The position numbers and the translations under genes were made by a program. Source: Trypanosoma brucei (lineage: Eukaryota). From it: a DNA stretch of 64,000 nt. The DNA lies in the NCBI GenBank assembly GCA_000002445.1, contig CH464491.1, positions 128,001 through 192,000 of the forward strand. The letters are read 5' to 3'. The notes beneath the pieces are model-generated. The model saw only the letters and a list, made by a program, of their open reading frames with translations, had not been told where the DNA came from and did not search any database. This document shows positions 652-60,348 of this stretch, piece after piece (positions within the stretch are counted from its first letter, which is position 1; every line of letters starts with the position of its first letter).

Positions 652-880
652 CCTTTTCATCCACTCCCCAGTGAAAAAAACTAATAACAAAAAAAAAAGC
701 ATCTGTATTTTCTGTAACAATAAAAAATTATCCAGCCCCTCCCTCCTTCTCTTCTCCTTCAGCCTTCGCCACTAACACAAAACGGTATTTTACCATTCGT
801 ACAAACGGTAAAAAGAATGATATTTGAAAAAAAAATTAAGATTAAAAAAGGACATTTTGTGCGATTGACTGCGAGGCATT

Positions 881-2053
881 TCATTGGAGGCCACTCCTCA
901 ACTTCGCCTCGTCGATGCACCGTTCAAGGGTCACCCGAAGGTCATGTTCCCTGTTAATGCAGCGTTCCAATTGAGTAAAATCCCTACGATACGCCGCCTC
1001 TTGAGCTAACAAAAAGTCCTCAACAGCAGCTGCGGGTACGGGAGGCCCATCCGTTATGCAACATCCGCCTGCCGCATCCTCATCAGTTTGAAGGTTGACA
1101 TTCACGGATGAATAACTGGAGAAATTAATATTCGCCTGCCTCAGAAACATGCACGCCTGTTCCCGCTCAGTTCCCTCTACACCACCCACTGCAGCATCCA
1201 CTTTTAAGAGTGCTGCGACTGTTTCTGCAAGGTAAAGTAAAGCAAGGCGAAGCGCCACACGATGAGAAGAGGCAGCAGAGTTTAAAGGCAAATACGATAA
1301 GAGTGCGAGTGCCAGGTGGCGATCCTCCCGCAACTCAACACGGGCGGCGTCACCGGTAACAATGTGCAACGGAAGCAAATGTTTCTCCATCCATGGAATG
1401 ATATCACGCTCCAGTGCCTCATCTGTCACCGAAGCGCCAGCACAAATCCGACCTTGGAATGTTTCCCCGTCAGTTCCAGCAATACATGGTCCTATCCGTC
1501 GCATAGCATTGCGAATGGTTATGCGGGTGACGCGAAGGATGCTCAAAGGCTCGTTTTCAACGGTACTGCGTGGCAAGCAACTGAGAAGTTGCAGTAGGCA
1601 GTTAAGAATGTTACATCCCTCGTCACAGAGTGCATCCAATGGCGCATATTTCACAACTAAAACGGCCATTCGAAGCAGTGCTCCAATTGCTCGGGGACCC
1701 AACAGCGGGCGGTGCGCGAAACAATCAGCGAGACTCCGAAGGTTTTCTAACGAAATTTGATGCAAGCACGGCGCAGTTCCGGTCCCATCACCTCCCAATT
1801 CATTATATACCTGAAGGACATCCCTGACAGATTTCAGTATCATTTCCTCCATTCCAATAACCGCAGCCCCCGCCACATTGATGCTATTGCTGAGAAATAC
1901 CAATAATTGCGAAGTATGACGAGGCGCCTCTGGAAAACGAAAACCAGCAGAAATTCCACTAGAAAACAATGTGGCGTAAAAACTTCCTCCCGGTTTTCTT
2001 CCGTAAAGCGACGGTCCCTCGGGTGGGAAAGCAGTAACACCACCATTGCTCAT
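881..2053 (-). CDS. Conserved hypothetical protein (~390 aa), no recognisable domain
   Basis: Long ORF with coding-like GC3-rich codon usage. The track start at 2059 is a TTG; the first in-frame ATG is at 2053 (cat at 2051-2053, MSNGGVTAF...). No motif recognised. Confidence 0.6.
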   Translation of the reverse strand: MSNGGVTAFPPEGPSLYGRKPGGSFYATLFSSGISAGFRFPEAPRHTSQLLVFLSNSINVAGAAVIGMEEMILKSVRDVLQVYNELGGDGTGTAPCLHQISLENLRSLADCFAHRPLLGPRAIGALLRMAVLVVKYAPLDALCDEGCNILNCLLQLLSCLPRSTVENEPLSILRVTRITIRNAMRRIGPCIAGTDGETFQGRICAGASVTDEALERDIIPWMEKHLLPLHIVTGDAARVELREDRHLALALLSYLPLNSAASSHRVALRLALLYLAETVAALLKVDAAVGGVEGTEREQACMFLRQANINFSSYSSVNVNLQTDEDAAGGCCITDGPPVPAAAVEDFLLAQEAAYRRDFTQLERCINREHDLRVTLERCIDEAKLRSGLQ

Positions 2054-5000
2054 TTCCAAATAGTTATATAACTCTTCCTATTAGTTTGTTTGTATTGTTT
2101 ATTTCGACACTCCACTCCAAGTTTCAACCCTCGTTACACCGCTTATGGATTATCAAATAGCAGTAAAGATGAAAATGTGGATAAAACAAAACAATAATAA
2201 TAATAGAAAATAATAATGAGATTATAATAAAGGATGGGGAATTTTTTTTTACTTTAGATATGATGGACATTGTGCCAAACAGAGTGTCAGAGAAGAATTC
2301 AAGTGATGTTGTTGGCGAGGCAAATCATTAAAATAAGTGTTGAGGCAAATTCGCATAGAAAAAGAGGAGTTTAGGTTTGAAATGTTTTATTATGCAAATT
2401 ACGCACCACGCATGCGCATATCATCCCCAGCATGTTGATTTCTTTTCTTCTTTCCCATGTGATTTGTCTCATTCCACTTCTTCTGCCACTGCCATTCCGT
2501 TTTGTTTGGTGTTTTTTTTTTCATTTCCTTTTTTAAAAAAAAGAAAACCACTTGTGTCAGTGTGTATAAGTGTGCGCTTATGTGCAAATATACATTAAAT
2601 ACATTATATATATGTATATATATGTATAGGTATGTATATATGTATGTATACGTCATGTGGATTTTGCACGTATGTGATATAGCTGAAACATGTTACATGA
2701 ATCAGAGTATATTCAAATATCACACATATGCTCAACATCACACAACAGACACACACACATATGCGCAAACACACAATGACAAAAAAGAAAAAAAAGACAT
2801 ATACACATATACATATATACTCATTTATATATATGTATATATATATATATATGCGGACAAAAGTTAAAAGAGCAAAGAAACAACAACAAACAAAAAAAAA
2901 CAAAAGTAAGACACATTTATGTCGAAGTATACGGTAACTCATTCCGCACGTCCATGGAAAACATTTTGCAACGGCAAGAGTTAAAAATCCTCGAGACACT
3001 GCTCGTAGAACTCCTTTCATAACTCTCAACCCCTTCGTCATCTCTTCTCCGCATTTAAAACCATTGTGTTGCGAAAAGTAACTGATTAAAAGCAGGGGAC
3101 AAAACAAAAACAAAATCAAAAAAAAACAAACACAAGCTCACGCGTAAGCGCAAAAAAAAAAAAAAAAGACGCTAATATCATACGTCACTCCTTACCTTTG
3201 CTTAGTCCGTGTGTGGACGTTCGTCCCTCCGCTCGTTCTCAAGGCCGCTCAACTTATAATAGTAGCGAAAAAGAAAAATACTTTTAAAAAAAAAAGGCAG
3301 CAAAAAAATGAAAAATAGAGAAATAAAAAAAGAAAACAAGCTCCTTCCTCCTTTTAATCAATCCTTCCGCTGTTGGACCCTAATGAAAAATCGGGCAAAT
3401 GCATATAATAATATAGTGGTAATATATATGTAAATAAATATGAATGTATATATATATATATATATATCATCAGCCTCTACACGGTTACAAAGGAATTAAG
3501 ACTGAGGGAAAAGCCCCCCCAAAAAAAAAAAAGAAACAAATCGAAGCAAAACAAAGCAAAGCGGAAGGTATTTATTTATATTATTAATATTTATATGTAG
3601 CACCAGTATCTGGAGGAGAGGAGGAGGAGGAGGAGAGGAAGAAGAAAAAACAACGTTTCAGCGCCTCCAACAAACCTCCCCCGCAACACAAAACAAAAAA
3701 AACAAAACAAAACAAAAATGAAAGGAAATGAAATGAAAAGAAAAGAAAATGAGGGATAGAGCAAATACAAGACAGCAACAACAACACAGAATTGAGAGAA
3801 ACAGGAAATAAAATAAAAAAGGGGGGAAAATATATTTACAAAAAGAAAAAAAGCAAGAACCCAATCGAGACAAAGACGGTCTCAAACACATCAGTTTATT
3901 ATTAATAAAAATATTCTTCATATCGTCTCCCACTGTTAATATTTAGTTATGTTTGTTTGTTATATTTCCTCAACTTAACCCTTCACGCATACTCTCCTTT
4001 TTCGTCTTTCTTTTTGTTTACTTTCTTTTTTTTTTCTTCTTTCCTTCGTTTCACGAAAACGTATTTTTCCCGTTTCTCTTTCTTTTATTTTTAATATATT
4101 TTTGTCCCCTTTCTCTCTTCTCTAATCCCTCTTTCCTCACGCATACGCGGACGAAAACAAAAAAAAATTAAAAAGGAAAAAAAAGAAAAAAGAAAAAAGA
4201 AAAAGAAACAAATTGGTCACTCTTTTTTTATTTATTTATTTATTTACTTTAGGAACTGCCGCTTCCTCCCTCTTTTGCCTCCATATCCTCTCTCCCGCAA
4301 ATACGCAAAAACATACACGTCTAAATAATATTCAAAACGGAGCGTTGCCTCATTTATTTATTTATTTAAAAATCACTTCACCGTTTGTTCTCTTCATCTT
4401 CTCTGCTTCTATTCACACTATTTGTTCCCTGATATTATTCTCTCACTGCTTTACTCCTCTTTCACTTCTTTTTATTTCCGATTAAATTCCAAACACCATC
4501 ATCATTATTTTCCCTTTTTATTATTTTTTTTTCCTTTTTTTATTTTACTTTTTTTTTAATTTTACGGAAATATAAAGAAAAAGAAGAAAAGGAGGGTAAA
4601 AGAAAGTAGCGACGGTATGACCCATTTAACTAAAAAAAATTTTCCCGTCCTCCTCCTCCTCCCCTGTTTTATTATTTTTTAAAAAAAAAAAAGAATCCAT
4701 TATATTATTGCGGCATCCGCCACACATGCGTAACACCCTCAATTAACAGAAGAGGGGAGGGGGGAAAAAAAAAAAAGAAAAGAAAAAAAAACGAAAACAA
4801 AAAAATTAAACCTACGTAAAGAAAAAAAAAATGAGAATACAAAGAAAAAAAAAGCAAAGCAAAAGCATAAACTGTCAAAAGCAGCAGTAAAACGAAAAGT
4901 AAAAAAAGAAAAAAGAAAAACAACCCCGTACCCGCCAACAGAAACCCCCCCCTTCTGCCCACAGGAAAAAAAAAGCATATAAATCGTGAACTTAAAAAAA

Positions 5001-5180
5001 AGAAAATCACCACACATTCATAAAAAAAAAAAAGATATAAAGAAAAAGAAAAGAAAAACAAATGCTTACAAACAATATAAGAGAAAACAAACAAAAAAAA
5101 GAGAGTTTACAACCGTCGCAAAACGCACAGGTTCTTCTTCTTCAGTTTTCAACCTTTCTTTTCTTTAAAAACATCAAACA

Positions 5181-5338
5181 ATAATAATAATAATAACAGT
5201 AATAGTAATAGTAATAATCAATAATCAATAATCAATGATAGTTATAGCTATATTTATACTTATATATATTTATATCGGTGGTAACAGCAGCAGCAGCAGT
5301 AATAGTAATAGTAATAATAATAATAACAATAATAATCA
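5181..5338. repeat. (AATAAT)/(AGTAAT)/(CAG)n compound microsatellite blocks in intergenic DNA
   Basis: ataataataataataacagtaatagtaatagtaataat ... cagcagcagcagtaatagtaatagtaataataataataac, seen directly. Confidence 0.9.
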
Positions 5339-16330: not shown

Positions 16331-16549
16331 GTAGATACCTTCACTGAACTGCAAAGGAGGGAAGAAACCACGAGGTGGAGCAAAGCGATGAAAAAAAGGG
16401 AACACGCAAAAAAAATCCACAAAGACCCAATGACCACAGTTTTAAAAAATGCCGGGCACCATGCGAGCGACACAACACGCCAGTCTCACCTAGTGCAACA
16501 GCATGATGTGTTTTTTTCTCCTCTCTTCTGCGCTGTTTCCCTCTCCACC

Positions 16550-17131
16550 TTAGTCGTTTTCATAGAAAAGGATAGTTGGTTTCCGGCCATTCTTAAGTTC
16601 TGTGCTAACCAGGTCCCTGTCGAACAGTGCAATGAACTCCTCATTGTCGGCGCGGCTCTTATCTTGTGCATACCGTCTGTACTCCTCCAATATGCTAACC
16701 AAGTTCCAGCCCTGGAGTTTCCGCAGGCAGCCGCACACAATACCGGTGCGGTACCTGCCCATACTGCAAGTCAGCAAAAGAGGATAGCTGATGGGGTCAA
16801 TCAACTCATGCAGTATCCCTACAACAACAGGCTCCGAAAGCGTCATGCTCCCTCTATGATGACCAACTCCACTCATCTCAACGCAAGTGCGACTTGGGTG
16901 AGAATCATCGTGCAGCGGGCATACGGTGCGTATGTTGTTTTCGCGCAACCACTGAACAAATGCCTCGTCATGACTGTCCGTCAAGAGCACACAGGTGCGT
17001 AACTTAAGAGAAGCTAAGAAGCCGTAGTGACATGGCTCCGGCGCACCACATCGGTAGATGCGCTCCTCGACGTACCCAAAATTTGACGGTACTATCATGC
17101 TGCGCCAGTTGCAACTAAGAACTGACTCCAT
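16550..17131 (-). CDS. Atypical dual-specificity phosphatase of the PFA-DSP / Siw14-Oca (Y_phosphatase2) family
   Basis: CX5R P-loop CSMGRYRTG preceded by LLTCSMG, family-typical. The track start at 17191 is not ATG; the first ATG is at 17131 (cat 17129-17131, MESVLSCNW). Confidence 0.75.
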   Translation of the reverse strand: MESVLSCNWRSMIVPSNFGYVEERIYRCGAPEPCHYGFLASLKLRTCVLLTDSHDEAFVQWLRENNIRTVCPLHDDSHPSRTCVEMSGVGHHRGSMTLSEPVVVGILHELIDPISYPLLLTCSMGRYRTGIVCGCLRKLQGWNLVSILEEYRRYAQDKSRADNEEFIALFDRDLVSTELKNGRKPTILFYEND

Positions 17132-45608: not shown

Positions 45609-46145
45609 CGTAAACGAACAATATAGCGGAGTTAATAATACTTCGAAGACAGAAAGAACTATATGGAAAAGAAAGATATGGGAAAACAAAATTTGAAGAA
45701 GATTCGAGTGTTAAACTACAAAAAATATTGCTTTATGTATCAGTTGACCGTTTGACAATATATATTAAACTAATTCCCATCTACGCGCTGTGGGGTTTCA
45801 ACCTGAAAACATCACAATATCATACATAAAGTACAGCTTTCCTCTTTTCTTTCGTTTTATCTCCTTCTTTTCCGATATCAATAGCAAACGCAAGGCATCC
45901 TGGTAGAGCCCTCCAACCGCGTAGTCTAATTAGTCCCTTCATTTTTGTATCTCCCTCTATGCGCATGTAGTACCTTAATAGATTTTCTCCTCTCTTTACA
46001 TTTGCAGTTGCCTGGTCAAAACCTGCAGACAATTCCTCCCACGTTCACAAAAATAAAGTACCCTCGCAAAGAAAGAGAAATAGAAAGAAATACAAATTTC
46101 TCTCTTCTTTTAAGAAAAATGAGGAGACTTTTTTTAACCCCTTAC

Positions 46146-46940
46146 TTACCTGAATATAATAAGATTCCTTTCACTATCAACAGACTTCTTCAGCTGCAGC
46201 TTTTCTTGTTCAGCGCTGTGGTCAACCTCAGCACAAGCTGGAACAAAATCCTTCGGTACTTTTAAAACTTTACCTGTTTCGAGCTTTATTTCTTTTGCTG
46301 GGCGTTTCATTTTGTTTTCCCAGTAAAGCTTCTCTTTCCGACGCTTCTCAAGCTCTTTTCGTTTGTTGTTTTCCGGTGGCTGAAAAACGATGGCATCACG
46401 ATCTCCGAAGAATAATTCATGGTAATGGCCGTTCGTTTGCTTCTTGGGGTCAAGCGAGCCGAGTACCGGGTTGTGCGGCATGGGTAGGGGTGTATTCGGA
46501 TCTATTGTGAACCTGATTATTGTACCATGATCACGACGAGGCGAGTGCTCGGTAGAAACCTCCACTCCAGCATCACGCTTCCCATTGGCCTTTCTTTTAG
46601 AAAAGGTAACGACGGCCTTTTTCTTATCAAGAACTTCCCTCATGTCGTCTGGAATCTTAGAGAAAATATGGTCTTCTTCGCGGGAAATATTCTCCAGTAA
46701 AGCAAGAGCATCTGAATGGAGAGAGACACCTTCTTTATCAGAAAGTGTTTTAACAGCACGAGAGACGAATGAAGTTACGTCGTCAATTCTTCTAGCATTT
46801 TCCCTGAATGCGCGTGCAGAAAGGATCCTTCGCATGACGTGTGCAGGGATATCAGCACCTGACGCGACAGCAGGGTCCTCCCCATTTTCATCCGCACTCA
46901 CTGAGCGGTTCATCTCGGGGCGCTCCTCCATCAGTTCCAT
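46146..46940 (-). CDS. Hypothetical basic/charged protein (264 aa)
   Basis: The track start is GTG; the first ATG is at 46940 (MELMEERPEM). Lys/Arg/Glu-rich C-terminus, KRKELEKRRKEKLYWENKMKRPAKE, looks nucleolar or RNA-processing. Confidence 0.55.
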   Translation of the reverse strand: MELMEERPEMNRSVSADENGEDPAVASGADIPAHVMRRILSARAFRENARRIDDVTSFVSRAVKTLSDKEGVSLHSDALALLENISREEDHIFSKIPDDMREVLDKKKAVVTFSKRKANGKRDAGVEVSTEHSPRRDHGTIIRFTIDPNTPLPMPHNPVLGSLDPKKQTNGHYHELFFGDRDAIVFQPPENNKRKELEKRRKEKLYWENKMKRPAKEIKLETGKVLKVPKDFVPACAEVDHSAEQEKLQLKKSVDSERNLIIFR

Positions 46941-48730
46941 ACGCAACGATCTTTTCGTTAACCTTTCTCGATTATATTTGAAGTATATCCTCAACCTAAC
47001 CCTAGAATAAATTGGTAAGGCACAAGAGCTGCTTAGGGCCACCGGTCACTCCCGTAACTGCAAGAACAATATACTAATATACACACGTACATGCACGAAC
47101 AAAAAGTTCTGTTGACACTTACAGTTGCTTAAAATACTAAAACCAAAGACTGGGCTCTAAACCCAAATGCACACCGCGCCTTCACATAGAAACGCAACAT
47201 TTTAAGCCGCTGAGCATGAACAAATGATTGTGTCGTCTCAACGACACATGACCGAAGAGGTGCGCAAGGACGTCCAATGACACAACAAAAGAGTGACCAC
47301 CACAATGACAATCGTTGGGCGGCGCGTTTAATTGCATTACAACTACGTCGGTACCTTCGCACTAACCATACATTTTAGTTCAAGCCAGAGAGATAACCGT
47401 GTAAAAGAAAATTTCCGTCCTTTTTCGTGACAAACGAGAGAAAACAGCCAAAGGCAACGACTTTACAGGGGAAAGGACAGGCGCTGACGAGACCAACAAC
47501 ACCTAGACATTATGCAGTACCACCGCTGGGTCCTGGTAGCACCCTGTAACCCAACCCTAGCCTCACATGAACTGTCTAAAGCACAAAAGAACGCGGACGT
47601 CACCAGTTCCAACATTAAAAGGCTATACAATAGGCTTTCAGTGATCTATTCCTATCACTTGTTTGTCTCTCTTGCTCATCCGTGGGGGAGGGGGGAACAG
47701 ACACCAATACACACCTTTCAGTCGCTATCGCGAGTCGGACTCAATTCTGCCGCTATCGTGCATGGTTAAAAGTCCCCCTGTTGTCCAAATCCCAATCGGG
47801 TTTCACGATTTCGTTGACACTGCGGCGCCGGAGGTGCAATATCTATTACACAAAGTAACGTCCCCTCCGCATCAGACTCATTCTGCGGTTATCTCATACC
47901 ACTTTTTCGCTCTAAGTCTTCGTTATTTTTTTTTATACTAGCTCTTCTTCTTTCCGTCTTTCTCCCTTTCGCGGGTGTGTGAGAGTAACTCACTGTACAT
48001 GGCCTTTCGTGTGCGATCGTTGCGGATAGTGCTCACGTTCCCAACCCCTTACACAGGGCTAAGAAAGCGCGATGCAAGTGGAGAGCGAGTGCGGGATTGG
48101 TGACACCCCTGTGCCGCGAGGAGAAGCTATGCAGGCTTTCGCGAAGTCGCATACATCGTACGATCGGCCCCTTTACAAAACATTGTACACGAGAGTGTTC
48201 GAACCAGCAGCGGTTCAGTAAGTGTTACAACGTTTCCTTCCATTCGTTGCGCCGGCTTATGCCTTCGAGTGTCGCGTGGAAGCGTTGGCCCCTTCACTAT
48301 CAAGTGCACGCTTGATCCGATTGCACGGTGTGGCGCGCACACCGGGCACACCGCCGCTGCCGCGGGCGCCCTCTCGGCACACGAAGTCCATCGGTGCCAG
48401 CTTCCTGCGCTGGAGCCTAAATCCCTTCCCACTGCCATATGCTCCGCAGCGCCCTCCGGAACAACCCCCTTGACTAAACACTCTCTGGCATATACTGAAT
48501 TATGCATCATGATCCACAAGTCTTTCCTCGACTTGACTATAACGCTTGATCACTCCGAGGGGCTGGATAATCACAACAGTTCCGCCCCCACCTTGTACAG
48601 TATCACGTTTCAGCTTCTTTTGTAAGGTGACTGGAGGGTGCACACCGAAGTTGGGCAGGCAGAGGTTGCGTTGGCACTGCCTCTGCTTACGGTTTTTTTC
48701 CAGGGGAAACAATTCACCGTTAGTCCGTAT

Positions 48731-49143
48731 CTTTTTTTTTTAATTCCCATCACAACACCATGTCGAGCAGCGGGTGCCAGCGCCTACGCCGTGTATAGCC
48801 CGTACGTTTCGTGCTAATCTCTTTCCTTGAGATAGCCCGGCGCAGTTCCACTGAATCCCGCGCGACGACGGGCTGGGATTCTCTTCCACATCACCGGACA
48901 GCAGCATCTTAGTGCGGATGATACTGCTGATGACACGCTGGCACGTGCCCAGGAACCGATAAATGAAAAACGGTGTCCCAGCATAACGCTGCTGATCCCT
49001 GTGCTGTATGATGCCGTAGCCGGAGCACAGCAGTGTTCCCCATGAAAGGAATACTGCTGGCTCTTGGCTTCCCCCGATGATACGGGATACTGGACCCTGG
49101 CACCACGTTGAGGTGGCCGGCATCACCAGGGCGTACGTTTCGT
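48731..49143 (-). mobile_element. Short ingi-derived element (RIME-like 5' fragment) with canonical Pr77, bracketed by a 12-bp direct repeat
   Basis: Minus-strand sequence from 49131 begins CCCTGGTGATGCCGGCCACCTCAACGTGGTGCCAGGGTCCAGTATCCCGTATCATCGGGGG (Pr77). It then matches the ingi 5' region including the 2A-coding segment (KMLLSGDVEENPSP). Homology ends exactly at 48812. The direct repeat cgtacgtttcgt sits at 49132-49143 and 48800-48811. An A10 run at 48731-48740 lies 60 nt further on. Confidence 0.75.
49055..49131 (-). promoter_or_regulatory. Pr77 internal promoter of ingi/RIME/L1Tc/NARTc elements
   Basis: Reverse complement of 49055-49131 matches the conserved 77-nt 5' sequence shared by trypanosome LINE/SINE pairs. 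Recognised from memory of the published Pr77 sequence. Confidence 0.75.
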
Positions 49144-49534
49144 ACGAGTCGACCCCGTACATTGAACCCTGTGATGTAGATGCGATATTGGAATACTCCT
49201 CGTTTTTGGCTGATCTACCTTGAGTGAGTCGGCACGCACACTGCCAGCTGTGAGTTCTCGGTTGGAAAAAGATCCTGGAAATGCATACGAAATTCGGGGA
49301 ATCGCCGCATACTGATGTTCATGGTGCATCCGCAGAAACAAATCCGTGCTTGCTCACCTTCCATATTTCCGGACTTGATTGACACCAGCCACGAGCTCTG
49401 CATTCACGCCATCTCGTTGTAATGCCAGCGTGTGTCAGAGTGTTTTTCACTGCCGTAATGTTCGTACTGATTGGTGGAGCTTGTGGCCATGTAAACCGAT
49501 CTTTGTTCGGGTTAGCCTCTCAGGCACAGCGGTG

Positions 49535-52500
49535 TTACTCGCGGGTTGATATTTCGCAGCAACCATTCACAATGCAAGGAGACGGCGATGCGCAAGCTCT
49601 CTTCCACCGTTCGCCAAGTGCCTCCTCTCGCGTCACGCCGCTGGAAGTGAATACGAACTGCAGCCCAATGCTCGCTTTCCTGCTTTCTATCTTTAGGACT
49701 GGTCGCCATAGCTCTCGTGCAGGCGGTTCGATAGCACTCAATGAGCCATTTGCTAGCGCAGTGGGGAGAGACGGCGAGTTGTTGAAAATCGACAGTTTCC
49801 TCATCGTTTTCTCCCGCATGGAGAGGTTCTTTAGTACACTCCGCGCACCAAGCTCCAGAACAATGCATTCCGCTCTGTAACTGCATGAGAGTTTCCCTGC
49901 TCCTGTCTTGGGTGCACAAATCAGCGTGTTGTTTCTATAGAGCAGGGCAGCTGCCCCGGACTTCTCACCGAGGGACACGGATCCATCAGTCCACAATTCG
50001 TAGTGCTCTCGTCGCGGTGGCTCCTTCCCCCTCCGTGCAAAATGCCGTGCAATCCACTTTTCGGAAGCCTCCCTTTTGACATCGTCAGGGTCATCAGCGC
50101 ACACAGGCTTTATCTGCGTGTGAAATATCGGTCGGCAGCTGTGGTGAAGCGTCGATGTCTCTAGTGGGTGCTCGCGTGGCTCAATGTGGAGGTGGGGGTA
50201 GAACCGCATGATGCGGGAATGTAAGACTCTGACTGGATGTTTGCTGTGGTATACTTCCTCAGCACTGCGCCGCAAACATCCGCCTCGTGACTCACACATC
50301 AGCATGAATTTCATGCTGCGCACAAGAGTGGCCGTCTTGAGTGGCAGGAGGTTTGCTTCCAGCAGAGAGTCCTCTTTGCGCGTCCCATGCTGTATGCCGG
50401 CTGTGATGCGACTGGCTTTGTGTTGTGCTGCTGCAAGGAGGTCGCGACTTCGTTTTGAAGCGTCCCAGTACCATACCTCAATGCCATGCATGGTGTGTGC
50501 CTGTACGAGTGCTAGATAAAAAGCTCTCAGCACTTGTCGTCTTGGCCCCCATGTAGAAGCTGAGATGGCTGCTATCTGCAGTAGTCGGAAGTCCATCTTG
50601 CGTCTCGTTTCGGCCGCATGTGTTGCCATCCCCTGCAGACTCTGGAATGTTACTCCAAGAAGCTTTAGTGTCCTGTCAGCTCCTATTCTTTTGCCGTCGA
50701 GTTGTAATGTAAGGGAGTGCCGCTCTATACACCCGAAGAGTGTGCACTTTGTTTTCGCTACGTTGACAGACATGAAGTACTCTTTTGACCACTGTAACAC
50801 CACGTTTAGACCGCATTGTAGTGTGTGGTTGATGACATCCCTCTCTGTGTGCCTCGCAAGTATCGTTAGGTCGTCTGCAAAGAATCCGTGCTGCAGTAAC
50901 GGCACTTCTGCAAGGCGTTGGCTCAACGAGTTCATGACAATAATGAACATGATTGGGCCAAGGACAGTTCCTTGTGGCACTCCTCGCTCAAATGTTCTGC
51001 TTCTGGAAAGCTTCTCCTTGAATCTCACTCTGCCAGTTCGGTTACTCAGAAATGATACGCACCACTTCACAATGTGGGGTGATACCTTCATTCTGTGCAT
51101 TTCCCTCGCAATTTTGTCGTGGTCTACTGTATCAAATGCCTTCTCGTAGTCAACGAATACAGCACCCGTACGAGATTGGTGCGTGGGGCGGCAGAGGGCA
51201 GCGCGGACGTGCAGGAGTTGTTCGAGCGTTGAGCATCCGGGGCGAAAGCCTGATTGCTGCGGCGTCAGCTGGGACTCAACAGTGTCTCTAAGTCTCGCGG
51301 CAATTATGCGCTCCATGACTTTGCAGAGACAGCTCGTGAGCGTCACAGGCCTGTAAGAATCGAGGTCCTCCGCCTTTTTTCCGGCCTTCAGGATGGGGAT
51401 GATAACACCAGTCTTCCATGCAGGCGGCACGACTCCCGTTCGTAGGCTCTCATTGAATAGCCTCAGAACAACATTCAGCGCTGTTCTACCGAGATGTTGC
51501 AGTGCCTCGTTGTATAAGCAATCAGGTCCGGCTGCGGATCCACTCGGTAGCAGTTTGATCGATCTCCGTAGTTCAGCCATCGTGATGGGACTGAACTCAC
51601 TCGCTATCGTCTTTATTGGTGCCGGTGGGTGTGAGTCGGTGTGCCTTCTTGCGCGGGACGAGTACAGTTTAATGAACCTCTCAGCTTGACGGTAGTCCGT
51701 GATGGCCGCGTTATCAACAAGTACAGCCGGTGTGGTTAGTGGTCGTGGCGCATATACCTTCTTGAAAATGTGCCAACTGCAGCGGTCTGACACCGCAAGT
51801 CTGGAGTATAGCGTGCTCCATCTCTTCTTTGTGATACGGTCCAGGATCTGCTTACGCGTGGCTACCAACTTTTCCCCTCGGTGGGAGGGTCCGCATCCAG
51901 CGATCTCTTCATCGAGTTTCGCGAGCTCAGGTGTCCAATGTGGTGACGTTGCTCTGCAGCCACGGGGGACGGAGACCTTCGTCGCAATGCGGATGGCGGA
52001 GCTCAATTTCTGTTCCAGGGTGTTGACGTTCTTCTTTCTACCAATTTTCCTGCAGTACTCGTCAACCTTCAGACGGAAATTCCTCCAGTCAGCTTTTAGC
52101 CATGCGTACATGGGCTTTCGAGGCCGCGGGCAGCTCAGCGCATCTGTGTCGTCTCCAACGATAACATCGAAAAATATGTGATGGTGATCGCTATTGGGAG
52201 AATGAAGCGATGTCCACGTGTACACTGTGCAATTCCTTGACAGTGTCACATCAGGGGTGGACTCCCCGTGGTGGCGCGCGTTCCTGGTGCACTCACCAGT
52301 GTTGCAGACCAGAAACTGGTTGTCAATGCGCCACTGTGTGAGGGTTTCACCCTTGGTATTTGGTGGGCTCGCGCGATCCGATGCCAACGCGTGTGCGTTA
52401 GCGTCTGCACCGATGAGCTGTGAACTTTCAGTCGTCAGAAGCGTATCTAGGTCAGTTGCCGTGAAGGTGTGTTTTGGTGGGATGTATGCCGACGTGACAG

Positions 52501-52843
52501 TCAGCGCCGTTCCACGTGCAAGGTGAATTGTTGCATGCACTTGTTCAATGCGACCAATAACATGCATACCGGTCTCGACTGGTAGGTCCTCCCTCACTAG
52601 TATTGATACACCACCTCCTTTGCAGTTACGAGCTATTCCGTGATGTTGGTAGCCAGCAACGCTAAAGCAAGCCGCCTCTCCAGGCGTCATCCTTGTCTCG
52701 CTCAACAGACAAAAGGCGATCCGCTCATCAACAAGGGTTTTGTGGAGTGCTAATCTCTTTCCTTGAGATAGCCCGGCGCAGTTACACTGAATCCCGCGCA
52801 ACGACGGGCCGGGATTCTCTTCCACATCACTGGACAGCAGCAT
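49535..52843 (-). CDS. ingi-type non-LTR retrotransposon ORF: 2A peptide - AP endonuclease - reverse transcriptase (1102 aa, C-terminal part frameshifted)
   Basis: ATG at 52843, MLLSSDVEENPGP (2A StopGo motif). APE/EEP motifs (LSETR, GADANAH, SDHHHI). RT motifs (QSGFRPGCST, FVDYEKAFDTV, RGVPQGTVLGP, FADDLTIL). The frame breaks after 49535, and RT/RNaseH-like sequence continues in other frames (49123-49919). Confidence 0.9.
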   Translation of the reverse strand: MLLSSDVEENPGPSLRGIQCNCAGLSQGKRLALHKTLVDERIAFCLLSETRMTPGEAACFSVAGYQHHGIARNCKGGGVSILVREDLPVETGMHVIGRIEQVHATIHLARGTALTVTSAYIPPKHTFTATDLDTLLTTESSQLIGADANAHALASDRASPPNTKGETLTQWRIDNQFLVCNTGECTRNARHHGESTPDVTLSRNCTVYTWTSLHSPNSDHHHIFFDVIVGDDTDALSCPRPRKPMYAWLKADWRNFRLKVDEYCRKIGRKKNVNTLEQKLSSAIRIATKVSVPRGCRATSPHWTPELAKLDEEIAGCGPSHRGEKLVATRKQILDRITKKRWSTLYSRLAVSDRCSWHIFKKVYAPRPLTTPAVLVDNAAITDYRQAERFIKLYSSRARRHTDSHPPAPIKTIASEFSPITMAELRRSIKLLPSGSAAGPDCLYNEALQHLGRTALNVVLRLFNESLRTGVVPPAWKTGVIIPILKAGKKAEDLDSYRPVTLTSCLCKVMERIIAARLRDTVESQLTPQQSGFRPGCSTLEQLLHVRAALCRPTHQSRTGAVFVDYEKAFDTVDHDKIAREMHRMKVSPHIVKWCVSFLSNRTGRVRFKEKLSRSRTFERGVPQGTVLGPIMFIIVMNSLSQRLAEVPLLQHGFFADDLTILARHTERDVINHTLQCGLNVVLQWSKEYFMSVNVAKTKCTLFGCIERHSLTLQLDGKRIGADRTLKLLGVTFQSLQGMATHAAETRRKMDFRLLQIAAISASTWGPRRQVLRAFYLALVQAHTMHGIEVWYWDASKRSRDLLAAAQHKASRITAGIQHGTRKEDSLLEANLLPLKTATLVRSMKFMLMCESRGGCLRRSAEEVYHSKHPVRVLHSRIMRFYPHLHIEPREHPLETSTLHHSCRPIFHTQIKPVCADDPDDVKREASEKWIARHFARRGKEPPRREHYELWTDGSVSLGEKSGAAALLYRNNTLICAPKTGAGKLSCSYRAECIVLELGARSVLKNLSMREKTMRKLSIFNNSPSLPTALANGSLSAIEPPARELWRPVLKIESRKASIGLQFVFTSSGVTREEALGERWKRACASPSPCIVNGCCEISTRE

Positions 52844-52975
52844 CTTAGTGCGGATGATACTGCTGATGGCACGCTGGCACGTGCCCAGGGACCGACAAAT
52901 GAAAAACGGTGTCCCAGCAAGACGCTGCTGATCCCTGTGCTACATGACGCCGTTGCCGGAGCAAAGCACTGCTCC
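52749..52975 (-). repeat. Dispersed direct repeat: ingi 5' region (2A-coding), about 95% identical to 48812-49039
   Basis: Aligned by eye: ctaatctctttccttgagatagcccggcgcagtt[a/c]cactgaatcccgcgc[a/g]acgacgggc[c/t]gggattctcttccacatcac...tgctgatccctgtgct. The two copies lie in the same orientation 3.9 kb apart. Confidence 0.9.
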
Positions 52976-53380
52976 AAACAAGAGGAACAATGACGTTCCG
53001 TCTGTGCAGAAAGCGAGTTTATGGGCCTTGGGGCCGCGGTGGTGTGGGTGATGTTTTCGTTGAATGAAAAGGCCCCGCCGCCTCATTCGCGTTGCGCGGG
53101 AGGAAGATCAAACCACCTCAGATGTGAATGTTTTTGCTTACTGAAATAAAGCTGTGCTGTGCCAGTCTCGGCGTGTCCGGTGTTTGCGCACCTGAAACTC
53201 CCCTTTGTGGTGCAATATCTTCTTTAGGGACTGTTCGAGTATGTCGGGGTTTTCAGGGACAGCGCGAACCTACTGCGCGCGGTGGATTGGGCTCATTTTC
53301 CAAGGCGGAGTGGTGCCGGTTCTTGGATGCACGGCCGGTCCGCAGCTGCGAGTTCGTCAGCGCCAGCCCTTCGGACCTCA

Positions 53381-53390
53381 GGGGGGGGGG
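53381..53390 (+). promoter_or_regulatory. G10 homopolymer tract on the sense strand of the plus-strand transcription unit
   Basis: Ten consecutive G (tcagggggggggggaag) about 3.2 kb upstream of eIF5A. G-runs on the transcribed strand have been reported at T. brucei pol II start regions. Confidence 0.4.
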
Positions 53391-54049
53391 AAGTTAGGGC
53401 CTGTTTCCCTTTCTAAATCCCCTCAACTACTGTTGGTTAAAAGAATGCAGGGAGTAGAACCGGAGGGGGGAAGCGTCGGGTCCGCCCCGCGTGAAAGCGG
53501 CTGGGGCGTACGACAGGCTTCGCGAGCTGGGGGCGGTTGTGTTTCGCGTGGGTCCGTTATATTTACCCCTTCCGTTTGTATCTCCACTAAAGAGAAAGTG
53601 GTGTCCCGATCCACACTGTATTGCTTCGCCGTGTGCAATTGCTGTGCCGCTGGGGAGTGCCTTACGGCGTCGTGGGACCGACGTGGCTCGGGGACTTAAG
53701 GTGCGCCCTTAAACACCGTGGCTGCTGCCTGGTCATGTGTTTATGCTTTGCGATGTGAGGCATTGTGGGGTCGGGCCTTTATGCGGACCCCTGAGGCGTT
53801 AGTATGCTTGTTTCTCTCGATCCTCTCTGTTTGTGCGCGTATGTTTTCCCCCTCCATGTTTTAGGGAGGGCGGTGGATGGGGAGATGTCACTGAACAACG
53901 TAGCTGTTGATTATTGCTGCTATGTTATTTTATTTTCCTAAGGCCACATTGTGGTGCCTAAATACCTGGGTTATCGTCACGCGCATTTATCATTTTTCTA
54001 TTTAGCCTTTATAGCTGATCCTTCTTTCAAATACATTTGCTTGTTCTAG

Positions 54050-54053
<4 letters not shown>

Positions 54054-54110
<57 letters not shown>
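54054..54110. repeat. (TA)28 dinucleotide microsatellite
   Basis: 57 bp of perfect TA repeats, seen directly. Confidence 0.98.
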
Positions 54111-54113
<3 letters not shown>

Positions 54114-56549
54114 TGCAAATGGCATCTTGGTGCACTTGTTCCGTTGCCGGGGTGATTATTTTCAGAGCGTATATACACCGCTTGTGGGTGATCGCGGTTT
54201 CAAGCCGGTTTGCTTTTGTTTTTGAGGACATGTATTGGGGGTGTTACCACTTTTTTGTTAATTGATATTGTGCACTTTTTTGTTTCGGTAAAAAGAAAAA
54301 AAATGACAGTGATATTATTTTTTTTTTTCGCTTACCTTCTATACATATATATATACTTGTCGGTGATACGTGTTTGTGTTTGGTGCTGATAATGCTTGCG
54401 CTGGGAGTTTCTTTTGTTGGTGTTTGTTTTCTCTGTAAATAAGATCGGCTTTCATTTCACTAATAGTCCTTGTAATATATCTTTTTTTTCTTTTTTTTCT
54501 AGGGGGCCATTAGTGCATGTAAGGAGCACTCTTAAGGGAACTTTTGTCAGCAGAATAATCAATGGTAAGTGTTGTACTTTGGCCATTGCGAGTGCGCTGG
54601 ACTTTGGGAGCTGGTACTGATACTTCTGTCTTGACGGATTCAAAAAAAAGACAAAAAACTTCACAACTTTTTCCGAAAGAAAGTGAAGTTTATCCTCTCA
54701 AATCAAGTGCGGATCTGTCGCTTTGCACACGCGCTGGTTGACAATAGATCGATGAGTGACATGTCTGATCACCCTGTGGTGCGGGTCTTTATTAATTGTC
54801 TTGCTCTTTATTGATTCATCTGTGCTTTGGCGACGTAGGCGGAGTAGAGGATTGCCAATTCCGTCCTTTGGAATGGTTTACCGTCTTATTTTATTTTGTT
54901 AACCCAGTTGTCTTATGTGTAATCCTTTATCGGCCGGTGCGAGCTGTGGGTGGGATGCCGATCGTTTTTTCTTCTGCAACGGCAGAGAGTAGTGCTGATG
55001 GATATCGGTAAAGGGTGTTTGCTGCGTTGGTGAAGTGAGTATGTCGATGGAAGGGTACGCATATAATTAATATATCTGGTGCTTTTTCTTCTTATTGAGT
55101 AGCTTTTGAGAGCTCGGGACGGTAAAGTTAGTTGCCGCATTAGGTGTATGTTGTTCTGGTTAATTTCTGTTCAGATCCTTACGGTAAGCACGAAACCATT
55201 ACACCTGGTATGCTTTAATCCGTTAATTCAGGCGGTTCCACATTTGGTTCAATCACTGAAATACAGCTGAATTTTTAAATTCTTGTTTTAAAATTACCTC
55301 ACTTAATAAAAGGAAGGAAATGACACATCAAAGTAATGGAAATGCTGCATTGTACACCTGTGGGTGAGCTGATGAAGTAATAAAATATGGACCCGCGCGT
55401 TAAAGCCGTTTGTTTCCATCAGCAATGCCCTCGTGTCGGTTGTTTTCCCTTTTTGTCTTTCCATTATTCCACTGTAAGTAGTTTGCTTGAATTACGGTTT
55501 GATAAAAGGAACTGATTCACCTGGGTGTCTGCCGTAGTCGGAAGGGTGGGCGGAAACGTTGCTGTTTTCTGTGAGGTAGTTAACTCTTTGCTGCTATAAT
55601 CTTTACAATACCGTTTTAAGATGTGTATGTTATTTTTAGGTGTAGTTTCCTGGCATTTTTGTGGACAGATGATGTTTGTCTACGTTTATGGAACCAGTAA
55701 GTAGGAAAAGATGTATGAATTAACAAAAGGTATTTGTGCATCAGTGACTAGCGTTTTTTCCTCGTGTACAGTAATGTCTCTCTGGTACAGTTATTAATTG
55801 TTAGAGCGCGGTGCTGTGATCTCGGGTGTAACAACTGAATCTTTTTTTTGTTTCCTTGCTGAAGTGTATGGCTCTTTCTGGAATAACACATATGTAATTA
55901 TGCCATTGCTTACAGTGGAAGTAGGGGTGGCTAACATAATGATTTGTCCTTTTGATAACACTGTATTGAAGGAAGAATTATCGCTCTTTTAGTTTTCCTG
56001 TTCTTTGTCTGTGGTCTTGTAAGTTGGTGATATTGTGTATTAAGCTTTCAATTTTTCTTTATAATTTGCAGTAGGCAGTTGTCTCTTGCGGTCATTTGGC
56101 CTACGGTATAGGATGTGTTAAGGTGTAGCTCACGTAAGTAAAGTTCATGATCGAATTCTTTTTGATTTTCGTTTTCACACATTTGATCCTTAAAGACTTA
56201 CACATGCCCTCTTTTTCATTATTATTATCTTGTTCATGAGTTGATGCGACATTGGTGGGTAGGGTTAGATGACCTTTTCTCTTTGACGCAATATGTCGCG
56301 GTTGTTACGTTCGCTTAGACACCAACGTCTCTTGTTTGTTATTTATGTATATTTGGGTACAACCGTTTTTCATTCGTTTCCCTTTGTCTTATAGTAACTT
56401 CATATATATATATTAATTTTAACGAGTTTGTATTTTTGTTTTCCTTACAATTATTGTAACCTACCATTCGGTTTATCACCCATACTATTATTACCCTTAT
56501 TTTTCTTTCTTGATATAGACCTTGAGTTCTTCTGCTTTAAATCTACACA

Positions 56550-57050
56550 ATGTCTGACGATGAGGGACAGTTTGCCGAAGGCGGAGCGCAGGTGGGCTCT
56601 CTGACGTATCCGATGCAGGCAGGCGCTCTGAAAAAGGGCGGCTACATTTGCATTAATGGACGTCCGTGCAAGGTAATCGATCTTTCAGTGTCAAAAACTG
56701 GAAAACACGGTCATGCAAAGGTGAGCATCGTTGCCCTTGACATTTTCACCGGAAACAAGATGGAAGATCAGGCCCCCTCAACTCACAACGTTGAGGTGCC
56801 CTTCGTGAAAACTGCAACGTACAGCGTACTGGACATTCAGGAAGATCGTGAAGACCCCAGCAAGCCAGCTCACCTTTCGCTCATGGACGATGAGGGTGAG
56901 ACTCGGGATAACCTGGACATGCCTCCCAACGCGGAACTCGCAGGGCAAATCAAGGAACAGTTTGATGCAGGAAAGGACGTTTTGGTCGTTGTTGTTTCTG
57001 CTATGGGAATTGACCAGATTCTCAGTTTCAAGAATGCAGCTGAGCGATAA
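56550..57050 (+). CDS. EIF5A: Eukaryotic translation initiation factor 5A
   Basis: Hypusination loop [11 protein letters not shown] within [12 protein letters not shown]...[36 protein letters not shown]; 166 aa. ATG at 56550, preceded by a polypyrimidine tract (56494-56512) and an AG at 56517-56518. Confidence 0.93.
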
Positions 57051-57393
57051 GGCCGTAAGTTCTAGGTTAATATATTTTTTTCTTTATCTTTTTCTATACA
57101 ATGTCTTAAAAGAAGAGTATGAGACACCCATGTTCTAAATTGTTAGCTGATTTTGTCGAGAATAGGGGTTATGTAGCCCCGTGTCCGTGTTTGACGTTGT
57201 TGATGTAACTCTCGTGCTAAGAGGTCATGAAAATTTGCCTCTCCCAGCTTCTCTTTGTGCTTTACAAACACATACACACACAGAAAAAAAAGGAGCGCAT
57301 AACGAGCGGTTGTATATATGTATGTGTACGTACACAATAAGGATAGAGGAGAGACTAGGAATACTTTCTTCACGAGGATAAGGCCCTTTTAAT

Positions 57394-60348
57394 ATGACAA
57401 GCAAACATAGTGCTGTATTAACTATAACCGAAAAGGGTGATTGGAGAACTGCGAAAAATGGCGAGAAGGTATGGCGGTATATGGTGCAAACGGCACCGAC
57501 GATGAGAGCTCGCTGCAGAAAATGTTCACAACCTATTTTAAAAGGTGACCTGAAATGGGGAACTCCTATACGTCATTCCCATGGAGCGTATGGGTGGATT
57601 ACCGCCTGGCATCATGTGGGGTGTACGAGAATTGCTGAACGTAAGGGCTTTAGTGACATAGTACATGGAATAGACTTACTTCCACCTGAGAAACGGGCGC
57701 AGGTCGTTGCGGAGGTGACATCCGACTCGATGCCTGAGCATTTACTACCTTTGAATCCTGACGATTTAGTAAAAAAACCTCTTCTTCCCGAAACTGAAGC
57801 ACCAGCTGAGTTGCTAAGACCACTTCTTCGTTATCAAAAGGAGGGTCTTGGCTGGATGGTGTCACAGGAGTTGTCTCAAGTTAAGGGGGGAATATTGGCT
57901 GATGAAATGGGTATGGGTAAAACAATCCAGATGATCAGTCTTTTTCTCGCCCGTCGCCTCGTGGGACCTACACTGGTTGTTTGCCCAGTTAGTTCAATGC
58001 TCCAGTGGGAATCTGAGGTGAAAGACCATGTGGTGTCCGGTTCCCTTTCGGTGGTAGTGGTGAGCCGTACCAAAAATGTGAGAAGGGATGATATTCAAAA
58101 TGCTGATGTGGTTTTGACTACGTATCCGATGCTCGAACAGTCTTGGAGGGAGCTAGTCAACAAGAAAAGAGTTCCATGCCCTTACTGCCAACAGCTTTAT
58201 TTGCCGCGGCAGCTTGTTGTGCACAATCGGTATTTTTGCGGGCCTCATGCAAAGAAAACTTCTAAACAGGCGAAGCGTGAAAAACGACAAGGTGGCACTG
58301 GTTCTTCTCCCACTCGAAAAGTTCAAGCAAAAGAAACGATTATGAAGGGGCTTCGTACGTTGCGTGTCGATGTTGACGATAACGCGGAGGAAGGGGAGGA
58401 TTCTGTGTTCGAGGAAGGACCACGGGGTGTTGTTGGACCAATGGGCTTGTATCGTGAGCTCATGGTTGAGGCCGGGCGCAAAGTTAGGAGCCGTTGGGAC
58501 CCCGCGTACGTGGGAAGTGACAGCAGTGGGGATACCAACAATTCTACCACAGAAAGTTCCACCTCATCGGAACGGGATGACTCAGAGGAGGTGTTGTCGA
58601 AAGAGGAGGTGGCCGATGACAAGCTTAGCTCGTTCCGGTGCTTGCACTGCGGGTTTCAGTTGCTACGATACCCGTTTTGCCCTAAGATAGGGCAATGTCA
58701 CGTTCTCTCTGATTATATGAAACAAATAATTGAGACTGACGACGGTAGTGACGGCGTTGACCTATCTCAATCAGTTTTCCACTCGGTAACCTGGAGTCGG
58801 ATTGTTCTGGACGAAGCTCATAGAATAAAAGGTAGCAACACAAGTACGTCAAGGGCTGCCTTTGCCTTGGTAGGTGAGCACAGGTGGTGCCTCACGGGAA
58901 CCCCTCTACAAAATCGTGTAGGGGATGTGTACAGCCTGGTTCGTTTTCTACGGTTGGCGCCTTATGCAAGGTATTATTGTGGAACTGAGGGGTGCTCCTG
59001 CTCGTCCTTTTCTCATCCATTTTCTGGAAATGATTTACGACACTGTATATTTTGTGGTCATGGACCGGTCCAACATTATGCTTATTTTAATCGCCATATT
59101 TTAAATCCTATAATACGTTATGGTTACGTTGGCGACGGCAGGCGGGGAATGATGATGCTCTCTAATGAAATCCTCCAGAAGTGTATGCTGAGGAGGACGA
59201 AGGCCGAAAGAGCAAGCGACTTGCACTTGCCGCCAATGACCGTGGAAACGTTCCAAGTAAAGCTGACCGATGAGGAGAGAAGCTTCTATGAGTCGTTGTA
59301 CAAAAAAAGCACTGCCGCTTTTGATACCTTTGTTGAGAAAGGAACGGTGCTTCATAACTATGCCCACATCTTTCAACTTTTGAGTCGTTTGAGGCAGGCT
59401 TTGGATCACCCACTGATTGTCATTAATTCTATGAATGTCGGTGGCTCGTCGTGCTCGAAGGGGATGTGTGGAATTTGCACTGAGAGTTGTGGAGAGAACT
59501 CAGTACAGGTTGACCCTTGTAAGCATACCTTCCACCGGATTTGTCTTTCGCAATTTGTCGAAAGCCAACCTTTAAAGGAATATAATTGCCCTGTGTGTTA
59601 TGTGGCTATCAACATCGACCTGCGGAGTCTACACTCAGGGTGGGACGAAGACGGTGCCCAACCTGTTCTTCCTCCAGAGTTAGTTCACTCAGACAACGAA
59701 AGCGATGAAAACAACGTTGAGGAGGAAAGTAAAGGGAGGAAACTAGATGATTCTGCGGAGGGGAAATCCGCTCGAGCGAGATCGGTCAAGAAACGAGGCA
59801 TACTCTCCCGGATTGATTCATCAAAACCTCTTCGAGGGACGAAACTGGATGCCATAACAGAATACATTTGCAGCATTCCAGAGGAGGAAAAGGTAATTGT
59901 GTTTTCTCAATTTGGGGATACTCTGGACCTCATTCAGTTGTGGTTACAGAAGGTGAAAGTAAAGACGGTGAAACTTGTGGGGTCGCTCATGTTATCGCAG
60001 CGGCAAGCGGTTCTCAGGGCTTTCTTGCATGATAAGAGCGTTCGAGCCATCCTTATTTCTCTCAAGGCCGGTGGGGAGGGTTTAAATTTACAAATTGCTA
60101 ACCATGTTGTACTTGTTGATCCTTGGTGGAATCCCGCGGTTGAAATGCAGGCGGCGCAGCGAGCCCATCGTATTGGGCAGACGCGACCCGTTCGCGTGGT
60201 CCGTTTTGTCACTGAACGTTCTGTAGAGGAGCGCATGTTGGAGTTACAAGAAAAGAAGATGCTGGTTATTGAGGGGACTATCGATGGTAAGGTAAGTTCG
60301 CTGCAGAGTCTTAGCGAGGATGATCTTCAGTTTCTGTTCACGAGGTAG
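57394..60348 (+). CDS. SNF2-family DNA-dependent ATPase with N-terminal PARP-type zinc finger and embedded RING finger (RAD5/RAD16-like)
   Basis: zf-PARP-like N-terminus (ARCRKCSQPILKGDLKWG...GWITAWHHVGC). SNF2 motifs LADEMGMGKTIQ (I), DEAHRIK (II), LTGTPLQN (III) and helicase-C SLKAGGEGLNLQIANHVVLVDPWWNPAVEMQAAQRAHRIGQTRPV. C3HC4-type RING CGICTESC...CKHTFHRICL...CPVC between the helicase lobes. Confidence 0.88.
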   Translation: MTSKHSAVLTITEKGDWRTAKNGEKVWRYMVQTAPTMRARCRKCSQPILKGDLKWGTPIRHSHGAYGWITAWHHVGCTRIAERKGFSDIVHGIDLLPPEKRAQVVAEVTSDSMPEHLLPLNPDDLVKKPLLPETEAPAELLRPLLRYQKEGLGWMVSQELSQVKGGILADEMGMGKTIQMISLFLARRLVGPTLVVCPVSSMLQWESEVKDHVVSGSLSVVVVSRTKNVRRDDIQNADVVLTTYPMLEQSWRELVNKKRVPCPYCQQLYLPRQLVVHNRYFCGPHAKKTSKQAKREKRQGGTGSSPTRKVQAKETIMKGLRTLRVDVDDNAEEGEDSVFEEGPRGVVGPMGLYRELMVEAGRKVRSRWDPAYVGSDSSGDTNNSTTESSTSSERDDSEEVLSKEEVADDKLSSFRCLHCGFQLLRYPFCPKIGQCHVLSDYMKQIIETDDGSDGVDLSQSVFHSVTWSRIVLDEAHRIKGSNTSTSRAAFALVGEHRWCLTGTPLQNRVGDVYSLVRFLRLAPYARYYCGTEGCSCSSFSHPFSGNDLRHCIFCGHGPVQHYAYFNRHILNPIIRYGYVGDGRRGMMMLSNEILQKCMLRRTKAERASDLHLPPMTVETFQVKLTDEERSFYESLYKKSTAAFDTFVEKGTVLHNYAHIFQLLSRLRQALDHPLIVINSMNVGGSSCSKGMCGICTESCGENSVQVDPCKHTFHRICLSQFVESQPLKEYNCPVCYVAINIDLRSLHSGWDEDGAQPVLPPELVHSDNESDENNVEEESKGRKLDDSAEGKSARARSVKKRGILSRIDSSKPLRGTKLDAITEYICSIPEEEKVIVFSQFGDTLDLIQLWLQKVKVKTVKLVGSLMLSQRQAVLRAFLHDKSVRAILISLKAGGEGLNLQIANHVVLVDPWWNPAVEMQAAQRAHRIGQTRPVRVVRFVTERSVEERMLELQEKKMLVIEGTIDGKVSSLQSLSEDDLQFLFTR

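Follow-up and report, generated by a model that had tools for sequence, protein, structure and literature searches.

Evidence for a young Tbingi segment set in register within an ancient ingi-like relic at a strand-switch region of Trypanosoma brucei

We examined an ingi-derived retroelement locus in a 64,000-nucleotide stretch of the Trypanosoma brucei genome (assembly GCA_000002445.1, contig CH464491.1, positions 128,001 to 192,000 of the forward strand), hereafter the window, whose own numbering is used throughout. The locus contains an ATG-initiated open reading frame (ORF) of 1102 amino acids (aa) on the minus strand, which an initial annotation had taken for the intact part of a single ingi copy with a frameshifted 3' domain. 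Our analyses make it probable that the locus is a dead, non-autonomous composite, in which a young Tbingi centre lies in register inside an ancient ingi-like relic. The features concerned are listed below; nucleotide (nt) and aa positions of ingi refer to a complete element, the reference copy L001, and its protein.

49535..52843, minus strand: ATG-initiated 1102-aa ORF, comprising a 2A motif, the APE-type endonuclease, the reverse transcriptase (RT), the N-terminal half of RNase H and then 109 relic codons
52805..52828, minus strand: 2A-like motif DVEENPGP, aa 6-13 of the ORF
52175..52789, minus strand: APE-type endonuclease domain (Pfam; motif coordinates)
50645..51373, minus strand: RT domain (Pfam; motif coordinates)
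49865..52941, minus strand: young Tbingi tract equivalent to ingi nt 127-3200, with 96-100% identity per 100 nt to L001
52942..52988, minus strand: 5' remnant of the old relic, in register with its homologue, ingi nt 80-126, and identical at 35/47 positions
49144..49864, minus strand: DIRE-type relic of an old ingi-like element, containing the RNase H C-terminal half, then a change of frame, stop codons and a deletion spanning ~55 codons
48123..48800, minus strand: old relic, degenerate C2H2 zinc-finger/C-terminal region, ingi aa ~1357-1586 at 24-29% identity, with stops

The description of the reading frame itself in the initial annotation, uninterrupted from its ATG through DVEENPGP, the APE domain and the RT motifs up to FADD, was matched exactly. 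Its N-terminal sequence is MLLSSDVEENPGP, and the only Pfam domains detected in it were an APE-type endonuclease (Exo_endo_phos_2/Exo_endo_phos, aa 19-223) and an RT (RVT_1, aa 491-733, E = 8e-46), the FADD motif of the latter occupying aa 655-658 (50881-50870). Exact look-ups of the 1102-aa ORF and of a neighbouring 517-aa protein returned no entry. The nearest database proteins are ingi products of the T. brucei group, in agreement with an ingi derivation, and their cluster includes a full-length 1656-aa ingi protein from T. b. equiperdum (P0035). Alignment to this protein, in which deletions within the APE or RT domains would have counted against the initial annotation, revealed no internal deletion and a single extra codon at 50260, and all the APE and RT motif residues, including the catalytic ones, are unchanged. 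Complete 1656-aa ingi ORFs are present at other places in T. brucei-group genomes.

The DNA encoding P0035 was taken with its flanks as the reference copy, L001. This ingi is 5252 bp long and has both a poly(A) tail and a 12-bp target site duplication (TSD). A blastn search of the window with L001 produced a single long match, of ingi nt 80-3200 to window 52988-49865 at 96.7% identity, and no match in the window to ingi nt 3200-5252. In a more sensitive alignment, identity ranged from 92 to 100% per 100 nt between ingi nt 112 and ~3200, after which it fell sharply to 54-56% while the two sequences remained collinear, the boundary involving no indel. At the base level the junctions lie at 52941/52942 (ingi nt 127) and 49865/49864 (nt 3200), the former within the conserved ingi nt 100-135 block and the latter, at codon 993 of the ORF, directly after the codons for SYRAEC. 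Just outside the 5' junction, ingi nt 80-126 are matched ungapped and in register at 74% identity, a score of 35/47 reached by none of 20000 shuffles (0/20000), and directly within it 100/100 nt are identical. Outside the 3' junction, the 109-codon tail of the ORF aligns with ingi aa 1067-1153 at offset 0, with 44% aa identity (E = 1.6e-14). The in-register steps in identity at both ends therefore delimit a 3.08-kb young ingi patch within a much older ingi-like element. The break that had been attributed to a frameshift at about 49535 is accordingly relocated: the origin of the sequence changes at 49865, and the RNase H-like sequence stays in the frame of the ORF for 109 more codons, the frame changing near 49595 and the stop being reached at 49535. 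The supposed frameshifted 3' domain of the same copy is also reinterpreted, since these 2 kb belong to a far older sequence, ~55% identical to ingi at the nucleotide level and in register with it. As judged from these comparisons, the 3' third of the element is an old ingi-like relic of the DIRE type and not a frameshifted continuation of the young copy.

Over ingi aa 1066-1586 the relic aligns collinearly, at 24-49% aa identity, and it shows several stop codons, a change of frame and the loss of ~55 codons. It is nearer to Tbingi (49%) than to the ingi elements of T. congolense or T. vivax (32%), and thus would represent an ancient element closest to the Tbingi lineage. No match to its 112-aa tail was found at E <= 0.001 among 5.8 billion predicted proteins, nor was any paralogous relic family or donor found, and the T. 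vivax locus, compared by synteny for dating the relic, contained no orthologous relic. The 3' limit of the 48123..48800 part is uncertain, with a weak A-rich match extending to ~47905; DNA alignment recovered for the relic 3' end only a weak A/G-rich match at 47968-47905, whose score of 38 lies below the shuffle maximum of 42. A longer single-frame match of a second ingi protein, P0038, to the relic proved to be an effect of gapped alignment, and a shared frameshift was rejected. One minus-strand relic ORF (48127-48519) corresponds to an annotated 127-aa gene in the T. b. gambiense record (L004 2537-2920), a call on decayed retroelement sequence that is probably spurious.

Vestigial ingi-like elements of ~5 kb, the DIREs, which are degenerate relatives of ingi and L1Tc, are frequent at strand-switch regions (PMC2323293, PMC3820030). 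The old parts of the element (52988-52942, 49864-49144 and 48800 to ~48123) resemble TbDIRE in being collinear with the ingi ORF and degenerate, and the composite likewise sits in a strand-switch region. It differs from TbDIRE in that the defining 79-bp signature of the family, at the 5' end, is undetectable above shuffles and in that its centre is young ingi and not degenerate. With Tbingi (an autonomous non-LTR retrotransposon of the ingi4 subclade, 5.25 kb, single ORF of ~1657 aa) it shares the 2A-APE-RT order with no internal deletion, but nt 80-126 and everything beyond nt 3200 are here old, diverged sequence. The high identity that Tbingi copies show over the whole 5.25 kb consequently fails (74% for nt 80-126 and ~55% past nt 3200), and the ORF reaches 1102 aa, against the ~1657-aa 2A-APE-RT-RNase H-C2H2 ORF of potentially functional copies.

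The junction at 49865 divides the RNase H domain. Its first two catalytic positions (WTDGS and RAEC) fall in the young patch, while in the old part FSDS of ingi has become FNNS and GHCGVKRNEVCDE has become TSSGVTREEALGE. We take the altered positions to be the catalytic D, H and D of RNase H, replaced by N, S and G respectively, so that three of the five catalytic residues would be lost. Pfam detected an RNase_H domain (aa 1018-1155) and C2H2 fingers in P0035, but no RNase_H or zf-C2H2 match in the tail of the ORF or of the window element, even at E <= 1. The composite, whose ends are uncertain, yielded no identifiable Pr77, poly(A) or TSD. It is predicted to have no working RNase H and to be missing the zinc fingers as well as the 3' RIME half and a poly(A) tail.

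The 5' end is equally incomplete, a point overlooked in the initial annotation. Counted along the canonical ingi ORF, the ATG at 52843 is Met73; that ORF has its own start codon within the 79-bp Pr77 signature, the internal promoter and hepatitis delta virus (HDV)-like ribozyme of the ingi clade (PMC3383444, PMC4035085). The composite is devoid of ingi nt 1-79, and thereby of both Pr77 and the canonical ATG. An in-frame TAG at 52944-52942, within the old 5' segment and 33 codons upstream of the ATG, severs the canonical N-terminus, and the ORF begins at an internal Met because the relic supplies this upstream stop. The sole Pr77 match in the window (49088-49103) belongs to a separate ingi 5' fragment, described below. 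A degenerate Pr77 was sought upstream of 52988, where similarity was no better than in shuffles (p = 0.16); Rfam returned no match at E <= 0.1 over 46000-57500, HDV-like ribozyme families included, and no tRNAs were found in the window. The D(V/I)ExNPGP motif itself is intact, but only five residues precede DVEENPGP, counted from the ATG at 52843, and the G before its D, invariant in the clade, is S here through a private change. The active 2A peptide usually lies 40-80 aa from the N-terminus, and its upstream tract is critical (PMC3708506); the 2A predicted here has a five-residue tract. Because it is without promoter and ribozyme, canonical start, RNase H, zinc fingers and 3' end, the composite cannot retrotranspose, and the earlier view that the copy is not autonomous as it stands was therefore correct, with Pr77 now added to the missing parts.

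Orthologous loci were retrieved using eIF5A (56550-57050) as an anchor. That of T. b. equiperdum IVM-t1 (L005), a sequence free of Ns, matches window 49731-54071 collinearly at 96.9% identity and spans both junctions, and that of T. b. gambiense DAL972 (L004; accession series in PMC2854126) is collinear over the 5' junction. Both show lineage-specific single nucleotide polymorphisms (SNPs) at the locus. The independent collinearity of the two loci indicates that the mosaic is genuine and predates the divergence of these lineages, which answers the concern that the 1102-aa frame might be a product of misassembly. The T. b. equiperdum counterpart of the frame is cut short by a stop at its codon 75 (window 52621). 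Both loci carry in addition, in the tail of the ORF, an extra 501-bp RIME on the opposite (plus) strand, flanked by the TSD TAACACTCAATG, whose target site is empty in the window:

49731..49743, plus strand: empty target site, TSD TAACACTCAATG, of the RIME found at L005 2712-3212 and L004 ~4155-4655

The RIME insertion being polymorphic, RIME was mobilised after these lineages diverged. The assembly nearest to the window, the short-read GCA_001457755.2, whose eIF5A is labelled T. equiperdum, is 99.6-99.8% identical to it but breaks on either side of the composite, at window 49017 and at a contig end corresponding to 54575, and is therefore uninformative on the mosaic. The break at 49017 is a 10-N gap (L003 2778-2787) in the ingi 5' fragment, joined to unrelated DNA ending in Pr77, which looks like repeat-induced scaffolding. 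The two 'equiperdum' assemblies (L005 and GCA_001457755.2) have quite different haplotypes at the locus. Non-coding divergence between the window and L005 over 47027-58000 amounts to 1-4% per 250-500 bp.

Substitutions were polarised with L001. Sixty changes are private to the window, 21 synonymous and 39 nonsynonymous, and 42 to L005 (15 and 27, respectively). With the observed transition bias, 29% of changes are expected to be synonymous under neutrality, and the 35% observed in the window does not depart significantly from this value (p = 0.19; pooled p = 0.10). In simulations, the probability that the frame stays free of stops after 60 random substitutions was 0.13. Among the 35 private amino-acid changes, 13 affect sites that are invariant in Tbingi, Tcoingi and Tvingi; four of these lie in the APE domain, namely W20C, adjoining the catalytic N, W155S, C172R and D217N. 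Change at the locus thus fits neutrality, and the pattern of substitutions suggests that the frame has no function.

Up to 47042, every ORF of 200 aa or more lies on the minus strand with a single exception, a 204-aa plus-strand ORF (16388-17002) that overlaps a minus-strand ORF, whereas from 56550 the plus strand encodes eIF5A followed by an SNF2/RING helicase and PP2C; the GC skew flips near 50-52 kb. The gene layout therefore places the composite within a divergent strand-switch region, with the first minus-strand gene downstream of it. In T. brucei the density of transposable elements is highest at such regions (PMC2323293), and the locus is probably on chromosome 11 of the T. brucei group. 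The composite has, as previously stated, the same orientation as the minus-strand gene cluster. Its co-transcription with that cluster, which had been deduced from this orientation, is unproven given its position, and would hinge on a transcription start upstream of ~53050.

We propose that an ancient DIRE-type relic came to occupy the strand-switch region and that its central 3.08 kb (ingi nt 127-3200) would have been overwritten in register by young Tbingi sequence. The likeliest route would be homologous recombination at the DNA level, through gene conversion, the mechanism that we infer, or a double crossover, with junctions in locally conserved motifs. Replacement of DNA is favoured because both junctions keep the register and coincide with conserved motifs, and recombination between ingi and RIME has been reported in trypanosome genomes (PMC2854126). 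The 1102-aa ORF would then be the coding part of the young patch running 109 codons into the relic, its frame remaining open owing to the youth of the patch and, in the window strain, to luck. Several observations weigh against this interpretation. Recombination is hard to picture at ~55% identity, unless it used short conserved patches or a less diverged relic, and no unconverted relic allele was found in the three other assemblies examined. With the catalytic residues of APE and RT unchanged, the protein may have residual enzymatic activity. Finally, the Nei-Gojobori dN/dS between the orthologues, 0.56, might reflect constraint, or a later import from ingi lineages under selection; we do not regard this value as evidence of constraint, because it is non-significant once transition bias is modelled.

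Among the alternatives, that of one ordinary ingi copy whose 3' third, from RNase H onward, is merely frameshifted would account for the end of the ORF at 49535 and for the ingi-like similarity that continues downstream in other frames. It is nonetheless highly improbable, as identity drops from 96-100% to ~55% within a few bases at 49865, in the same frame and with no indel, and a like step occurs at the 5' end; uniform decay cannot yield adjacent divergences of 3% and 45%. An aberrant L001 sequence in nt 3200-5250 as the cause of the drop is opposed by the 95% identity of P0035 and P0038 along 1481 aa. The composite could also have been inserted as one unit, as an RNA-level chimera generated when the RT switched templates between relic (DIRE) and ingi transcripts during target-primed reverse transcription. 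Non-LTR reverse transcriptases are known to switch templates, and nascent cDNA could re-anneal in the conserved motifs where the junctions lie (SYRAEC at 49865 and the nt 100-135 block). We consider such an origin unlikely, since two in-register switches would be needed, no Pr77, poly(A) or TSD was identified for the composite, and no donor relic family is evident. As for an assembly artefact, in which ingi and relic reads were wrongly joined, ingi copies are a classic cause of misassembly and GCA_001457755.2 breaks on both sides of the element, but the junctions recur in L005 (both) and L004 (the 5' one), together with lineage-specific SNPs and a shared extra RIME, so that this explanation is exceedingly improbable.

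The initial annotation had further suggested that the copy could supply endonuclease (EN) and RT activity in trans, for example to RIME, and this suggestion would extend to an EN-RT gene that has been retained or domesticated and is expressed as part of the polycistron. The part of it that stands is the intactness of the ORF and of its APE and RT motif residues; a crude dN/dS of 0.5-0.6, the mobility of RIME since the lineages split (49731-49743) and what may be a pyrimidine tract, with an AG after it, ~130 nt before the ATG would also be compatible with it. The stop at codon 75 in T. b. equiperdum and the fit of lineage-specific changes to neutrality argue against such a role, as do the 13 private substitutions at invariant residues, four of them in APE, and the lack of Pr77, RNase H and the zinc-finger domain. 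Ingi transcripts are moreover held at low levels by RNA interference (PMC4721609), and the full-length 1656-aa ingi ORFs are a more plausible source of EN and RT in trans. Domestication therefore appears very unlikely. A broader scenario can be imagined, in which relics at transcription-start regions would be landing pads repeatedly rewritten by gene conversion from active ingi, and promoter-less EN-RT frames at the heads of polycistrons would be kept, in some strains perhaps translated, and might contribute EN and RT activity in trans, for instance to RIME, which has moved at this same locus since the subspecies separated; we mention it as a speculation with little chance of being correct.

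If the locus is indeed a young Tbingi centre within an old relic, it would constitute a clean, datable case in which an active ingi and a vestigial relative within a strand-switch region have exchanged sequence in register, relevant to the homogenisation of trypanosome retroelement copies and to counts of 'potentially functional' ingi. At the level of annotation it brings a correction, as a long open frame in a repeat need not mean a near-functional element, and the supposed 3' frameshift is the point at which sequences of very unequal age meet. All the components (Tbingi, DIRE, RIME, 2A, Pr77 and retroelements at strand-switch regions) are already known, and known ingi biology is unchanged by the composite. 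In the literature covered, which excludes Bringaud et al. 2009 (Eukaryot Cell 8:1532), we found no description of an in-register ingi/relic mosaic or of a poly(A)-less 319-nt insertion such as the one described below. Owing to its 60 private substitutions and its two junctions, the copy can be mapped uniquely.

The relic is itself interrupted by a second, separate ingi-derived sequence:

48813..49131, minus strand: separate ingi 5' fragment, ingi nt 1-319, 96% identity, with neither poly(A) nor 3' half
49132..49143, minus strand: left 12-bp direct repeat ACGAAACGTACG, perfect
48801..48812, minus strand: right 12-bp direct repeat ACGAAACGTACG, perfect

This fragment contains an intact Pr77 (49131-49053), the canonical ATG at 49123 and the 2A variant ENPSP. 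The region 49123-49919, previously reported as RNase H-like, thus mixes relic sequence with the fragment, its first position being the canonical start codon of the latter. The repeat ACGAAACGTACG occurs just twice in the window, and 12 bp is the canonical length of the TSD in the ingi clade (PMC3820030). Excision of the fragment with one repeat leaves one continuous frame, which aligns with ingi aa 1215-1492 (E = 5e-13) and in which FNVRGRLVRNVRAIHGVGAGT faces FAVPGRLLHHIRTIHGIGSGS of ingi; because excision restores the frame of the relic, the fragment represents a clean insertion into it. The same fragment with the same repeats is common to T. b. gambiense and T. b. equiperdum. It resembles RIME in starting with Pr77 and in being flanked by a 12-bp repeat, but RIME consists of ingi nt ~1-250 plus the last ~250 nt and poly(A), as in the L005 copy, whereas the fragment passes the RIME junction to reach nt 319 and has neither the 3' half nor poly(A). 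In being made solely of the 5' end of a long element it is like NARTc (PMC2323293), which, as RIME is for ingi, is the short non-autonomous partner of L1Tc. A poly(A)-less, 3'-truncated copy flanked by a TSD is atypical of target-primed reverse transcription, and the fragment may be a NARTc-like short derivative. Upstream of it, 4/10 specified positions of the ingi4 insertion-site signature (PMC3820030) are matched, too few to be informative. Its Pr77 faces the first minus-strand gene, ~2.1 kb downstream.

Between the composite and eIF5A, a long (TA)n palindromic microsatellite (54034-54121) lies in the AT-rich half (38% GC) of the strand-switch region. In T. vivax the eIF5A-SNF2-PP2C block is kept, the genes upstream of it are on the same strand, and the adjoining 10 kb contain no strand switch. 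The 3' part of a young Tvingi (L007 3-2376), 84% identical to P0003, lies there 7.6-10 kb upstream of eIF5A and in the orientation of that gene. The region upstream of eIF5A appears to be a retroelement-associated synteny break in both species.

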